Positions 180-15,518 of a stretch of DNA of 64,000 nt are shown one piece after another (position 1 is the first letter of the stretch; every line of letters starts with the position of its first letter). The DNA lies in assembly GCA_965219345.1 (NCBI GenBank), contig OZ244732.1, forward strand, positions 1,504,001-1,568,000, written 5' to 3'. The notes under the pieces are model-generated. The model worked only from the letters and a program-made list of their open reading frames with translations, did no database searches and was not told where the DNA came from. The position numbers were made by a program, and so were the translations under genes. The stretch comes from Nitrosopumilus sp. (lineage in GTDB: Archaea > Thermoproteota > Nitrososphaeria > Nitrososphaerales > Nitrosopumilaceae).

Positions 180-1407
180 TCGGGAGGGCATCTCGCAATA
201 ATGCCACTTATATCAATGCCACACTTGGCCGCCACGTTTTCCAAATGCACCCTGTCGTAGGGCGTCCAATGGCACAGCGTTCCGTCGTGACTGCCGCACC
301 AATCAATGAAATCGAGCATCATTTTGCGTTACCCGTCTCGACTTTTGGCCAGAAACGGTACATATTTTCCGTCTTGCATAGTTCCTATGAGGAAATCGCC
401 ATCGGGATCTCCCGCGATGCCTTCAAGATCTATAAACGTGGGATTCTCCGGCAACGGGATATCGCACAGTTTGACTTCTTTGCCGCTTGACAACGCTGCC
501 GCACACGACACATGACGTGCCGTTATGCCATTTGGCAGTGTTTCCAATCTGGTCAAGTCGTCTATGGTCTGCACCCCGATGTCTGCCAACATCTGACGCT
601 TTACTGGACCTATCCCGTTAACCAGTGATATGTCGCCTGACTTGATCGCCATCTGGTCGACATATTGACTCCATGGACGCGGTGTGTGTCCGTAAATAGG
701 TTCAGGCATAACGGCACCGTTCGCTAAATCATGGACTTTATTGATGAATTCCTGCATCTGATCCGCATATTGATCGTAAGGACACTCTCTTTCGTCTCCA
801 TTGCCATTCACGATGACAAAATCGGGGGCATAGCCTTGTATGATTCCCAGCATGTGAGTACGCCGCCCCCTGCCAGACGTGCTGCGGTTTGATGATGTTG
901 CTGCTATTATACGGCCTCCGTTACGGGTATAAGGTTGTCATCCTGCCAGACGTGCTGCGGTTTGATGATGTTGCTGCTCTTCATTTCATATGGAACGTAC
1001 GAATGCTTCCAGAACAGCGACTGTTTCTCGACGCGCACGAGCAAGTCGGGGATGCCACACACGCTGCCTCCGAAGAGGCACACACCACGCAGTTGTTTCA
1101 CCCCCTTCTGCATGTCTTCAAGTCCAGCTAGGAATGATTCAGTACGCGTTTTGACAGTCTTGGTTTCCATGACCAGCCCTTCAGACATTTCCATAGTGAC
1201 AGTCTCTTCATGTTCGAGGCCGCGTATCACAAGAGTCTGGTCTTCGTCTTGGTGCACTGGATCTACATGATGGTTACACCATACGGCAAACGGAGAAACC
1301 CTACACAGTCCTATTTCAGACGCTATGGCACGCACGCCGTCTGCCATACATCGTTCGAATATCTGTTCGGCATTTTCAGTTTTTCGTCTTCGCTTCCAAA
1401 ATGGCAT
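180..1407 (-). pseudogene. TM0106-family RecB-like nuclease (PD-(D/E)xK + HhH + RNase H-like), fragmented
   Basis: ORFs 907-1407 (GIPDLLVR...YEMK) and 329-853 (HhH SLVNGIGP; FIDLEG). Read-through past TAA at 329-331 gives ...CHWTPYDRVHL. Broken by a 73-bp duplication+insert, a frameshift at ~854, a nonsense codon and 3' truncation near 190. Confidence 0.8.
869..978. repeat. Ectopic repeat-spacer-repeat unit 1 (37-bp exact direct duplication around a 36-bp insert)
   Basis: CCTGCCAGACGTGCTGCGGTTTGATGATGTTGCTGCT at 869-905 and 942-978; insert 906-941 ATTATACGGCCTCCGTTACGGGTATAAGGTTGTCAT. Confidence 0.95.
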
Positions 1408-1500
1408 ATACTGACAGACTGAATGCGTTTAAAAAGTCATGATGGCGTGCAGATCTGATAAATTGTCGGGCATGGTTGTGTTAATGAGGATGGTATTCTT

Positions 1501-1523
1501 GGCACTGTTCAAAATTGTAGATC
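1501..1523 (+). mobile_element. Orphan IS6-type 23-bp left end (GGYWCTG-N12-GATC)
   Basis: GGCACTGTTCAAAATTGTAGATC matches the reverse complement of 6686-6708 at 20/23 and resembles the IS26 end GGCACTGTT. Confidence 0.7.
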
Positions 1524-1789
1524 ACAGTGGAATCCCAGGCTCTGGTAAATCTAGGTGATCTACAGTTCTTGTTGGTCAAAAGTGAGCTTTTTAGATCTTC
1601 TCCCGATTCAGACTCGCACAGTCCAGGCCAATGCAGTCTGGCTGTTCAAAAGTGATCCACCCTTTGACCTGCTGTTCAAAAGTGATCCGCATACCCTGCT
1701 GTTAAATTTTTGTGATCACTTTTATCTTTCATAACATTAGGATCTTGCCATTTAACACGAAATCCAATAGAATTGCCAATGGCAACTAG

Positions 1790-2212
1790 CTAGTTTATTC
1801 CAGAATGCATGTCTTCCGGTTTCACCATCTTCGATAGTGTAAGTGCGATCCCTAAGGTGTCTCGTGGAAACCAAATACCTGTATGAGACGGATAATCTTC
1901 CTCCTGTAAGTCTTCAATCCGAAGTTCATTGTCATGTTCAGAATTTATGGTTTTTTTAGCATCCCCCACATTAAGAACTGCAAACCGTCCGTTTGTTGTT
2001 GTACTGTGATGTCTGCCAAACTCTTCTCTTACTTTCTTCATACCTCTTTCCAAATCTGGCATACCAAAATATTCAATCCAGTTAGATGATAAAAAATTTT
2101 CATCATCACGAAACTCAAAGGCAGCTGGCATTGGAAGATTATTTCCATTAAGTCTAGTGGCTGAACAATATCTTGCCACATGGCTGTCACTACAAAGGGG
2201 CTTGGTCATCAC
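1790..2212 (-). CDS. Cargo protein, possible ADP-ribosyltransferase/RES-like toxin
   Basis: 140 aa; VARY...AAFEFR...FLSSNW...SHTGI pattern reminiscent of small ART-like toxins; overlaps the upstream stop. Function is inference. Confidence 0.45.
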   Translation of the reverse strand: MMTKPLCSDSHVARYCSATRLNGNNLPMPAAFEFRDDENFLSSNWIEYFGMPDLERGMKKVREEFGRHHSTTTNGRFAVLNVGDAKKTINSEHDNELRIEDLQEEDYPSHTGIWFPRDTLGIALTLSKMVKPEDMHSGIN

Positions 2213-12797: not shown

Positions 12798-12949
12798 ATG
12801 CTGAAGAAGAGTTTACAAATAACAGTGCCTGTCTGTCATTTATTTTAAATATTGTTACAAAGTCAGGACCACTTACAGTAAAGCTCAAGGTATCGCCATT
12901 CTCATCAGATGCAAATATGCTTTGAGAGTAAGAGCCGCCAGCAGGTAGT

Positions 12950-14249
12950 CAGTAGTCGGAAATGTCCCCATAAAACCAGCCAACAGATGCTCTCTGATGC
13001 GTTAACATTTTTCGATCATACAGATCTATTATCTACAGTGCCCTTACCCACCTTAGTGTTAGTGCAAAAAGGTGGGCAGGTACACCGTAACAAGATTGGA
13101 GAAAGGATACTTAATACCTTGTCAGCAATACTAGAGTCTTCATCCATAGGATTCTCTACTAGGAAGAATGCTCAATATGGGGTAAGCGAGTTTGTAGCCA
13201 TACTGATGAAGATGTCTGAATCCAACATAGCTTCCGAGGAAGCAATCAGGCTTCTCAAGCACGCAGAAAAGAAGATGCCATCACCCAAGTGGTTTCGCAA
13301 CAGGATAAACTCGCTGGGATCAGGCAGTGCAGACAAACTCTGCAGGGACATGCTCACACGCACCGCAAGACTTGCCAAGAATACATGCCGATACAAGGGA
13401 GGCGTACTAGTAGCAATAGACAAGCACCTGATACCAAGGCATGACAAGGACAACATGTCACATTTGACAAGATCCAAACCAAAGGGCGGTACAAGTAAGT
13501 TCGAGTGTTACGCAACAATGCATGTGGTAGCAGAACGGGTTCCTGCCATTTTGGAGTGCATGCAGGTAACGCGCAGCGTGGATGATGCCGATTTTGTGCG
13601 TAAATTCGTACAAAAACTCAAGGGTTACAGGATACGGGCCCGGCTGCTGCTGATGGACCGCGAGTTCTACTCTACTGAAATAATCAATCTTGTATCAGAA
13701 CATAGATGCAAGTTCCTGATGCCTGCAGTCAAGAACGCGGGGATAAAGAGGATGATACGGGAGCACCACGATAAATCACGCAAGGCAGTCTCACAGTACG
13801 CCATCAGAAACGCAGCAGGTCAGTCTGCCACATTTACATTGATAATCACGCCATCAAAAAAGATAGACGATCCTGATGCTGACATCACGGAAAGATACAA
13901 TGTCTTTGCCACCAACCTTTCCCCAGCCAAGGCATTAGAAGAGATTGAGACGCTTCCAGATGAGTACAAGAGTAGGTGGGGAATAGAGACAGGATACAAG
14001 CAGGTCGAGCAGGTGCGTCCGAGGACAACAAGCCGCAATGCGTCATTTAGGGGAATCATGTTTCACGTCTCGATGTTCATGTACAATGCATGGGCAGTGG
14101 AGCAGTACCGAACAGATTCAAATTATGATCGGGTAACCCTGGCACTTGTCGCATATGCTACGGCAATGGCTGCGTTGGAATTATGCAGGATGGCGGGTCA
14201 ACCGTATGATGTCGGAGGATCTGCCTAAGAGGCATATTTCCGACTACTG
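12950..14249 (+). mobile_element. ISH3-family (IS4 superfamily) insertion sequence, 1300 bp
   Basis: 14-bp perfect TIR CAGTAGTCGGAAAT (12950-12963 / 14236-14249); 5-bp TSD GTAGT (12945-12949 / 14250-14254). Confidence 0.92.
12987..14228 (+). CDS. ISH3-family transposase
   Basis: VAIDKHLIP, LLMDREFYS, YKSRWGIETGYKQVE (YREK-type); the true start lies inside the IS, not at 12909. Confidence 0.9.
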   Translation: MLSDALTFFDHTDLLSTVPLPTLVLVQKGGQVHRNKIGERILNTLSAILESSSIGFSTRKNAQYGVSEFVAILMKMSESNIASEEAIRLLKHAEKKMPSPKWFRNRINSLGSGSADKLCRDMLTRTARLAKNTCRYKGGVLVAIDKHLIPRHDKDNMSHLTRSKPKGGTSKFECYATMHVVAERVPAILECMQVTRSVDDADFVRKFVQKLKGYRIRARLLLMDREFYSTEIINLVSEHRCKFLMPAVKNAGIKRMIREHHDKSRKAVSQYAIRNAAGQSATFTLIITPSKKIDDPDADITERYNVFATNLSPAKALEEIETLPDEYKSRWGIETGYKQVEQVRPRTTSRNASFRGIMFHVSMFMYNAWAVEQYRTDSNYDRVTLALVAYATAMAALELCRMAGQPYDVGGSA

Positions 14250-15409
14250 GTAGTGTAAGATCATTTATTGGTTGAATTGCAGGAGATCGTACTCCAATGA
14301 GAGTAGTTGTTGTGGAATGGTTAGAATACTCTCCTATTCCTTGCGAGTTTCTTGCCTGAATTCTGTATGTGTATTGTGTGTTGTCTGTTACTGTACTGTC
14401 TGTGTAGGTATTTGTGGTGTGATCGCCATAACTATTCTCCAGTGTTACAAATGAGCCAGCTCCAGTCTGCCTTTGAATGATATAGTGTATGATGTCACTG
14501 CCGCCATCAAATGGCGGACTCCATGAGAGGACAACTGATGAGGATGTGCCAGTTGCTAGAACGTCAGTTATTGTGCTTGGTATGCTCAAATCATAGATTG
14601 CAAAATTATCAATCACCACATCTTCTGTGTTTCCATTTTCTTGGGCAGTAAACCTTACACTAAAGTCATCGTCTCTCCATGCAGAAATATCATATGTCTG
14701 AGTATGCCAGTTGCCATCAAAGTCACGCCCACTATCCCACAATTCTATCTGGTTCCAAGTAGTTCCATCATACACCTCAACTAGGACATAGTCATGTGGA
14801 GGTCGATTTCTTTCAGTGCCATCAAGAGAATTATCAAGCCACCTATCAAATTCCAGTCTTGGGTTGGCAAAACCAGATATGTCAAACTCGTTAAATGTCA
14901 TGATACACGCCACATCACAATCCCTGGAGCGTACTACATTTCCTTCTCGTCCATCAAATTCAGAACCAGATACTATCTGCCATGTGTCATAGTCATGTGT
15001 GTCAGGTGGAATCTGTGCATCTGCAATTATGCTCCAAAAGCCCAATCCGTTATCAAACGAATCTGAAACTCCAGAACCAGTAGCTGTGATGCTTTGCACA
15101 TCTATGTGTATGGTACCTGTGGTGGTATGGCCGTCTCTTCCATCAGTTGCGGTATATGTAAAAGAGTCAAACCCAATGCTACGAGGAGTATACCTTATCT
15201 GGCTTGAGGTAGGAGTGATGTTGGGTAAAGCGTTTGTATCTAGTATTCCCAAAGATGGATAACTGCCAATACTAAATGAAATGTGATCAAGGTCAGCGTC
15301 AGTTGTAGTTATAGGTATTATGATTGGCGGGCCATTTACTGTAACGTTATGATTGGTAAGTAATAATGGCGGTGTGTTTGGTACTGCAAGGAAACCACAG
15401 TCTGCCCTA

Positions 15410-15518
15410 GTTGCAGCCCCTGCACCAAAGGTTCCAGGTGCACATTCGGCTCTAGATTTATGACAGATATGGGAGGTCTAAGGTTGCAGCCCCTGCACCA
15501 AAGGTTCCAGGTGCACAT
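15410..15518. repeat. Ectopic repeat-spacer-repeat unit 3 (36-bp exact duplication around a 37-bp insert)
   Basis: GTTGCAGCCCCTGCACCAAAGGTTCCAGGTGCACAT at 15410-15445 and 15483-15518; insert 15446-15482 TCGGCTCTAGATTTATGACAGATATGGGAGGTCTAAG. Confidence 0.95.

Follow-up and report, generated by a model that had tools for sequence, protein, structure and literature searches.

Spacer-sized inserts between 36-bp target duplications across a Nitrosopumilus genome: probable off-target integrations by a type I-G CRISPR-Cas system

The closest described precedent for the insertions reported here is from Escherichia coli, in which over-produced Cas1-Cas2 integrated off target and created new units outside the CRISPR array, termed neo-CRISPR units (Nivala 2018, as described in 10.1101/148544, PMC7054753 and PMC6698737), and the same study, as summarised in 10.1101/148544, also pointed, on circumstantial grounds, to natural cases in two further species. 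Type I-G (formerly I-U) Cas4/1-Cas2 of Geobacter sulfurreducens is described as integrating 36-bp spacers, and the type I-G protospacer-adjacent motif (PAM) is given as an upstream TTN (PMC6547450). The published in vitro account of the Methanosarcina barkeri type I-G system has only 60-70% of spacer-side integrations at the correct site, with smears that suggest non-specific integration (PMC10504553). Off-target acquisition is one of three proposed origins of isolated or orphan arrays (Shmakov 2020, via PMC13142298), and ectopic acquisition within arrays is described for Streptococcus thermophilus CRISPR3 (PMC7999890). Here we analyse a 64,000-nucleotide stretch of a Nitrosopumilus sp. genome (C1:1504001-1568000, hereafter the window), which carries three repeat-insert-repeat units, and the similar units in the rest of that genome, which comprises two contigs of 1,871,224 and 41,585 bases at 36% guanine-plus-cytosine (GC) content. 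The host is an ammonia-oxidising archaeon, as its archaeal AmoA, deoxyhypusine synthase and archaeal-type ThrRS, all encoded in the genome, attest. We consider it very probable that the units are naturally fixed, off-target spacer integrations made by the genome's own type I-G Cas4/Cas1-Cas2.

In each of the three units an exact direct repeat of local DNA flanks an insert: unit 1 lies at 869-978 of the window (target copies 869-905 and 942-978, exact 37-nt repeat; insert 906-941, 36 nt; period 73), unit 2 at 6756-6865 (target copies 6756-6791 and 6830-6865, exact 36-nt repeat; insert 6792-6829, 38 nt; period 74) and unit 3 at 15410-15518 (target copies 15410-15445 and 15483-15518, exact 36-nt repeat; insert 15446-15482, 37 nt; period 73). 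All three were first noticed in a reading of the letters alone (the sequence-only reading), and re-reading of the sequence together with a repeat search found every one of them exact, with the three repeats unrelated to each other and the inserts likewise. That reading had seen no further unit in the other 48 kb, and indeed, amongst the seven direct-repeat families within 300 bp across the window, only these three are spaced 73-74; it had also placed two units inside coding frames, which are units 1 and 3, the stretch around unit 2 having only a 68-codon open frame. A fourth unit, at C1:1503080, lies 921 bp before the window starts.

The units proved to be a genome-wide feature. An exact-repeat scan of the genome returned pairs that clustered tightly, with repeats of 35-38 nt and inserts of 32-39 nt, and a mismatch-tolerant scan (at least 24/30 matches, periods 36-130, isolated pairs, with tandem and low-complexity regions removed) returned 62 isolated pairs, 31 of which fell at periods 70-76 (counts per period 1, 4, 6, 9, 7, 3 and 1) and nine at periods 64-68. 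The remaining 22 were spread over the 83 periods outside 64-76, mostly at multiples of three, a mean of 0.27 per period, and against this background the Poisson P is 4e-27 for periods 70-76 and 1e-5 for periods 64-68. The strikingly high density claimed from the window therefore extends, far above chance, to the whole genome, and the distribution of lengths is sharply peaked. Within the 31 units of the 70-76 class the duplicated stretch measured 36 nt in 11, 37 in nine, 38 in three and 35 in two, one or two extra duplicated bases being expected from chance identity at the edges; the scored stretch of the other six was 21-42 nt, decayed or extended by chance. The two target copies were identical in 19 units, one base different in eight and two bases different in four, and the insertion events are therefore of varied age. 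The units C1:37490 and C1:243305 have both target and insert in common and are diverged copies within duplicated DNA, so they count as one event and 30 events are independent. The first four 400-kb blocks of this genome (G000) held 9, 6, 7 and 8 units.

The lengths of both parts of the units correspond to those of a CRISPR-Cas locus resident in the same genome. A Cas1 profile search (PF01867) found two places, both CRISPR-linked, the first of which encodes a 561-aa Cas4/Cas1 fusion (NF049935, Cas4g/Cas1g; 754 bits against a cut-off of 560), then a 95-aa Cas2 (36.9 bits, cut-off 24.5), both as open frames, followed by an AT-rich stretch of ~180 bp and then, at C1:1641728-1653822, an array with 164 repeats. 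Of these copies 163 are identical, with 36 positions invariant, and the repeat ends in ATTGAAGC (...AGC), whilst the spacers measure 36 (37 spacers), 37 (35), 38 (34), 39 (23), 40 (13) and 35 (8) nt, with a few longer. Past the array, on the opposite strand, lie Csb2, Cas7g, Cas8g1/Csx17 and Cas3g, all open; all six components (Cas4/Cas1 fusion, Cas2, Csb2/Cas5-6, Cas7g/Csb1, Cas8g1/Csx17 and Cas3g) score above the NCBIfam type I-G cut-offs, and the locus is one complete type I-G CRISPR-Cas system. A Cas1-type integrase of the sort postulated by the sequence-only reading is thus encoded beside 36-nt repeats and spacers mostly of 36-38 nt. The target duplication equals the length of this cognate repeat, and subtracting 36 from the period leaves 34-40 across the units, with a mode of 37 (Kolmogorov-Smirnov test against array spacers, P = 0.38). 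Comparison of the whole 12-kb array with 150 congeners gave short matches of which every one checked was a repeat and none a spacer, and the array therefore yielded no PAM. As a separate observation, the leader-distal end of the array spacers is biased (in the 163 spacers the last four positions are taken by C, C, A and A in 64, 55, 60 and 77 cases, respectively), an end which the published type I-G model places on the non-PAM side.

Donors for a substantial share of the inserts were found on the same chromosome. Of the 30 independent inserts, nine are full-length copies of remote loci, six exact, two with one mismatch and one partial, and the donor match ends 0-2 bases from the insert edges. 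The exact copies are unit C1:88227 from C1:523291, C1:123641 from C1:561914, C1:429362 from C1:1084474, C1:915773 from C1:1636412, C1:919312 from C1:575144 and C1:1519410 (window unit 3) from C1:249804; those with one mismatch are C1:1029742 from C1:1368400 and C1:1638625 from C1:301522, and the partial copy, in C1:333438, is of a repeated 153-bp gene family. These inserts therefore stem from distant loci, not from their own neighbourhood, and do not represent a single recurrent element. The earlier statement that no insert has a match in the window holds for the window itself, with the correction that the insert of unit 3 reproduces C1:249804-249840, outside it, exactly over 37 nt; this donor stretch is conserved at 86-94% in relatives. 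No donor was found in the own genome for the inserts of units 1 and 2. A further insert, the 38-nt one of C1:1173661, has no match in its own genome but is 92% identical over its full length to G123:382157-382194, its donor being either a gene since lost or DNA acquired from a relative. By comparison, matches of the 163 array spacers to the genome in no case exceed 22 nt. We also observed that three of the nine donors lie within 52 kb (C1:523291, 561914 and 575144) and that C1:1636412 is 3 kb upstream of cas4/1; such groupings may mark hot spots of prespacer production.

Sister species retain the sites as they were before insertion. Empty alleles, with one target copy and no insert, were demonstrated for five of the 31 units, the sites of the others being either not found in relatives or outside the search. 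Both units in the pst operon (C1:1339320 and C1:1339961) are empty in all nine aligned relatives (G003, G004, G009, G058, G066, G084, G093, G106 and G120), C1:1503080 is empty in G118 and G009, C1:1504869 (window unit 1) is empty in G018, and at C1:1248140 at least 20 genomes show the empty form, as read from match pairs whose subject coordinates overlap by 30-38 bp. The two pst units split pstA and pstB, with phoU following, and the split pstB is the only PstB-model match in the genome at E 1e-40 or better. The first hit would have killed the operon and the second would therefore have been costless, which fits accumulation in a dead gene set. When exactly one period is excised in silico, the open frame becomes longer at 1503080 (218 to 304 codons), 1339320 (185 to 303), 601731 (155 to 252), 426365 (to 261) and 123645 (to 199). 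The clearest case is window unit 3, where removal of 73 bp turns open frames of 439 and 257 codons into a single one of 666.

The gene split by unit 3 (14158-16225, minus strand) is now two open reading frames (ORFs), 15458-16225 (255 aa) and 14158-15252 (364 aa), the latter of which carries a fibronectin type III domain (PF00041, E 2.9e-12); among 40 relatives a search for orthologues gave one weak partial match and nothing more, and no empty site was found. Unit 1 sits at the junction of two adjacent minus-strand ORFs, 907-1407 (166 aa) and 329-853 (174 aa), together spanning 329-1407. Neither has a Pfam family match; their counterparts in G018, at 85% and 90% identity, are two open frames that overlap, and comparison with the G018 orthologue shows that ~20 residues of the native C-terminus are gone from the upstream ORF. 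No long ORF surrounds unit 2, which is 134 bp outside the right-hand arm of a 181-bp inverted repeat; no site-spanning match from relatives, and hence no empty site, was present among the matches listed (121 genomes). The proposal that the insertions disable accessory DNA is too narrow, the conserved pstA and pstB being split as well.

The genus counts at least 150 further species representatives. Comparison with 150 of them, in which unit scans covered the first 400 kb of five genomes, speaks for a link between the units and the adaptation machinery. A Cas4/Cas1 fusion homologue (63-83% identical) occurs in 11 of the 150 and is broken in one; the adjoining arrays have a 36-nt repeat at 10 of the 11 loci (37 in G082 by the conservation threshold), with paired stem changes, and the piece retrieved for the eleventh held no array. 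Two genomes with the fusion held units, G055 five at periods 70-76 and G123 three, with two more at period 69, and one G123 insert is an exact copy from elsewhere in G123's own 400-kb sample. In G012 and G097, neither of which matched the fusion query, there were no units. Solitary copies of the 36-nt I-G repeat (97-98% identical) at G017:C1:1535361-1535404 and G119:C1:2066163-2066197, both in genomes without a fusion match, are likely the remains of lost arrays.

The nine units at periods 64-68 appear to form a second class, with duplications mostly of 30-32 nt, two of the nine being copies of one event. The second Cas1 match in the genome is an 83-codon C-terminal fragment, followed by two decayed ~30-nt repeats 67 bp apart (C1:1123019-1123330), and its intact counterpart is present in six congeners, with a Cas1 55-62% identical to the fragment and arrays with a near-identical 30-nt repeat at periods 65-67. 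We propose that the ~30-bp class represents scars of this lost second CRISPR system, a case which is weaker than the main one; the tie is made by the match in length, the Cas1 fragment and the near-identical remnant repeat.

Geometry, cognate machinery, donors and empty sites thus agree on off-target integration by a Cas1-type integrase that duplicates a repeat-length target, the core claim of the sequence-only reading. Following established Cas1-Cas2 chemistry, the Cas4/1-Cas2 complex would load a prespacer of ~36-38 bp, whose two 3' ends would strike ordinary chromosomal DNA at points 36 bp apart, one on each strand, and gap repair would then copy the 36-bp target onto both sides of the insert. 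Many of the prespacers would derive from the own chromosome. Self matches would be found in the inserts and not in the array because self spacers would be lethal in a working array, whereas the duplications that flank an ectopic insert are not CRISPR repeats and should give no CRISPR RNA (crRNA), which would leave self inserts harmless. Insertions in needed genes would be lost, so that survivors would gather in accessory, GC-rich or dead DNA, and the scars would outlast the system which made them, as the ~30-bp class would have outlasted the second system, left as a Cas1 fragment and two decayed repeats.

Several observations count against this account of the units. The activity of Cas4/1-Cas2 at the unit sites is something we infer from sequence. 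In length the ectopic inserts fall a little below the array spacers (median 37 vs 38, Mann-Whitney U test P = 0.036), no source was found for 20 of the 30 independent inserts, and TTN stands beside the donor on at least one side in 3/9, about chance for an AT-rich genome. The scans of relatives covered five 400-kb samples, and one of these genomes, G017, held two units of period 73 in spite of having no match to the fusion query; given its solitary I-G repeat we take these as scars of a lost system, an after-the-fact explanation. For the ~30-bp class the empty-site search of relatives gave no site-spanning match, and G017, which has a live 30-nt-repeat array, held no unit of that class in 400 kb.

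Both ends of the 11 exact 36-nt duplications provided 22 half-sites in which to look for target preference. G stands at +4 in 15 of the 22 (background 0.18, P = 3e-7), T at +2 in 14 (background 0.32, P = 0.002) and A at +7 in 13; the data from which this motif was drawn overlap those on which it was tested, and four half-sites from relatives have T at +2 in 3/4 and G at +4 in only 1/4. The true repeat is without G at +4 at either end. Targets would thus be chosen loosely yet not at random, both ends favouring N-T-N-G, and this may be an intrinsic preference of the integrase active sites in the absence of leader and repeat cues. Resemblance of the targets to the true repeat, at a mean identity of 12.6 of 36 positions against 11.4 for random sites (P = 0.004), is an excess too weak for them to be regarded as repeat-like sequence. 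Because the spacing equals the repeat length although the targets are unlike the repeat, the fixed 36-bp spacing would be set by a ruler built into the type I-G protein complex. Integration at these sites would also be independent of a leader. Separately, three units (C1:1824847, 1826944 and 1483340) occupy a homologous target where members of a repeated gene family begin, one copy with a 36-nt and two with a 30-nt duplication and a different insert, and this shared target may be a preferred half-site of both systems.

The distribution of units bears on a further suggestion of the sequence-only reading, that the adaptation complex is aimed at foreign or accessory DNA and silences it. In favour of aiming, 5-kb windows with GC of 0.40 or more hold 14 of the 31 units while making up 14% of all windows (Mann-Whitney U test, P = 4e-4), neighbouring units less than 10 kb apart form nine pairs where 4.6 are expected, a mild clustering (P = 0.018), and four units fall within 17 kb around the start of the window. 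Yet the conserved core genes pstA and pstB were also hit, the pair of hits in that operon fits accumulation in an already dead gene set, the G of the N-T-N-G preference may itself favour GC-richer DNA, and no guide or targeting component is evident. Loss of harmful insertions would explain the pattern unaided. Survival in dispensable or already dead DNA accounts for the GC-rich excess at least as well as aiming, and we favour this survival bias and regard aiming as unlikely.

The idea that units seed new arrays found no support, as none of the 31 has a second, different spacer. A search for neo-arrays with three target copies and two different inserts returned only tandem protein repeats, and the one locus with three target copies, C1:1432741-1432930 (period 73, inside a transposase-like gene), has two identical inserts and is probably one unit duplicated by unequal exchange. 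Nor are the units a functional CRISPR array, a possibility we rejected given that each has its own "repeat", at a mean of 12.6/36 identity to the true one, and none a second different spacer.

Slippage, template switching or repair synthesis independent of Cas proteins, by which a stretch is duplicated and a patch filled in, would account for inserts that copy the same chromosome elsewhere, as template switching can produce. Such processes are not expected to give a fixed 36-bp duplication or a 34-40-bp patch, yet both lengths match the resident array; the donors are hundreds of kilobases away without homology to the target, and two congeners without a match to the fusion query held no units in 400 kb each, so that we hold this explanation to be very improbable. 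Casposons and insertion sequences (ISs) leave duplications much shorter than 36 bp. Beyond that, the inserts all differ from one another, are of spacer size, have no inverted repeats at their ends and in part copy host genes, and the genome has only the two Cas1-family matches, both CRISPR-linked; the footprints of a mobile element or a casposon-like integrase are accordingly an even fainter prospect, although Cas1-family casposases are described as known in this archaeal group (PMC8464041). An assembly or sequencing artefact hardly deserves credence, since like units occur in four separate assemblies (G000, G055, G123 and G017) and both the target copies diverged by 1-2 bases and the diverged C1:37490/243305 pair need time in a real genome.

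Off-target integration by the resident type I-G machinery thus remains our explanation of the units, and those of the window have a setting consistent with their survival. Transposase context and GC content (0.41-0.53 in places against 0.36 for the genome) show the first 16 kb of the window to be mobile or accessory DNA. An ORF on the plus strand at 4831-6444 encodes a DDE transposase domain (PF13610, DDE_Tnp_IS240, E 6e-8), and the ~5-kb segment that holds it is bracketed by 181-bp inverted repeats at 1538-1718 and 6442-6622 (96%, opposite strand), so that the segment resembles a large IS-like element. A ~250-bp sequence at 14000-14250 occurs in four copies in the genome at 100% and in three in G018 at 79-88%, and may end a repeated element. 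Further into the window, at 17398-17880, there is a 15-bp tandem unit in at least 23 copies, perfect in the middle, with a further array at C1:404930; it is probably a repetitive protein segment.

A wider reading, to which we give about equal weight for and against, is that loose I-G adaptation is a standing mutational force in the genus which splits genes, including the only pstB-like gene, and leaves a datable fossil record of an unselected, largely self-derived naive input. On the same even footing, scars would survive loss of the system, the length of the duplication (36 vs ~30 bp) would name its maker, and both the 36-bp ruler and the N-T-N-G preference would be intrinsic to Cas4/1-Cas2 and independent of leader and repeat. 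Off-target integration, so far viewed as a rare laboratory event under Cas1-Cas2 over-production, appears to be common and fixed in wild genomes, and the units measure a hidden cost of adaptive immunity, insertional damage, besides autoimmunity. They also offer a natural sample of captured DNA before interference and selection, about a third of it self-chromosomal against none in the array. The genomic signature, a unique repeat-length direct repeat around a spacer-length insert, can reveal past CRISPR systems, and a ruler in the I-G protein complex, as suggested here, matters for the use of integrases as DNA recorders. As the hosts are abundant nitrifiers, gene loss by this route, here of a phosphate uptake operon, may have ecological weight.

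In the literature searched, which lacked most subscription papers, we came across no account of fixed scars by the dozen in a wild genome, nor of such scars in type I-G or ammonia-oxidising archaea. Set against the systems introduced above, as far as the cited sources describe them, the units resemble the E. coli neo-CRISPR units in that a spacer-sized insert is flanked by duplicated non-CRISPR DNA outside an array. They differ in that the E. coli units arose with over-expressed Cas1-Cas2 and electroporated oligonucleotides, whereas those described here are natural, fixed and present in dozens per genome, belong to a type I-G system with a Cas4/Cas1 fusion in an archaeon, have empty sites in sister species and chromosomal donors, and have in no case grown into an array. 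With canonical type I-G, in the published accounts, the resident system shares the family NF049935, a 36-nt repeat ending ...AGC and a main spacer length near 36; canonical integration is at the leader-repeat junction with TTN protospacers, whereas the units have neither leader nor repeat, with no clear enrichment of TTN (3/9). Like orphan arrays, in the account of them cited here, the units are repeat-spacer-repeat structures far from cas genes; unlike them, each has a unique local "repeat", a single spacer and no leader, and would therefore be missed by array finders that seek shared repeats. Ectopic acquisition in S. thermophilus CRISPR3, as its source presents it, is likewise integration away from the leader-proximal repeat, but those events use a genuine array repeat where the units use unrelated chromosomal sequence. 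The mechanism is already known; what is new is its natural scale, the self-derived inserts, the damage to genes, the genus-wide spread and the two length classes.

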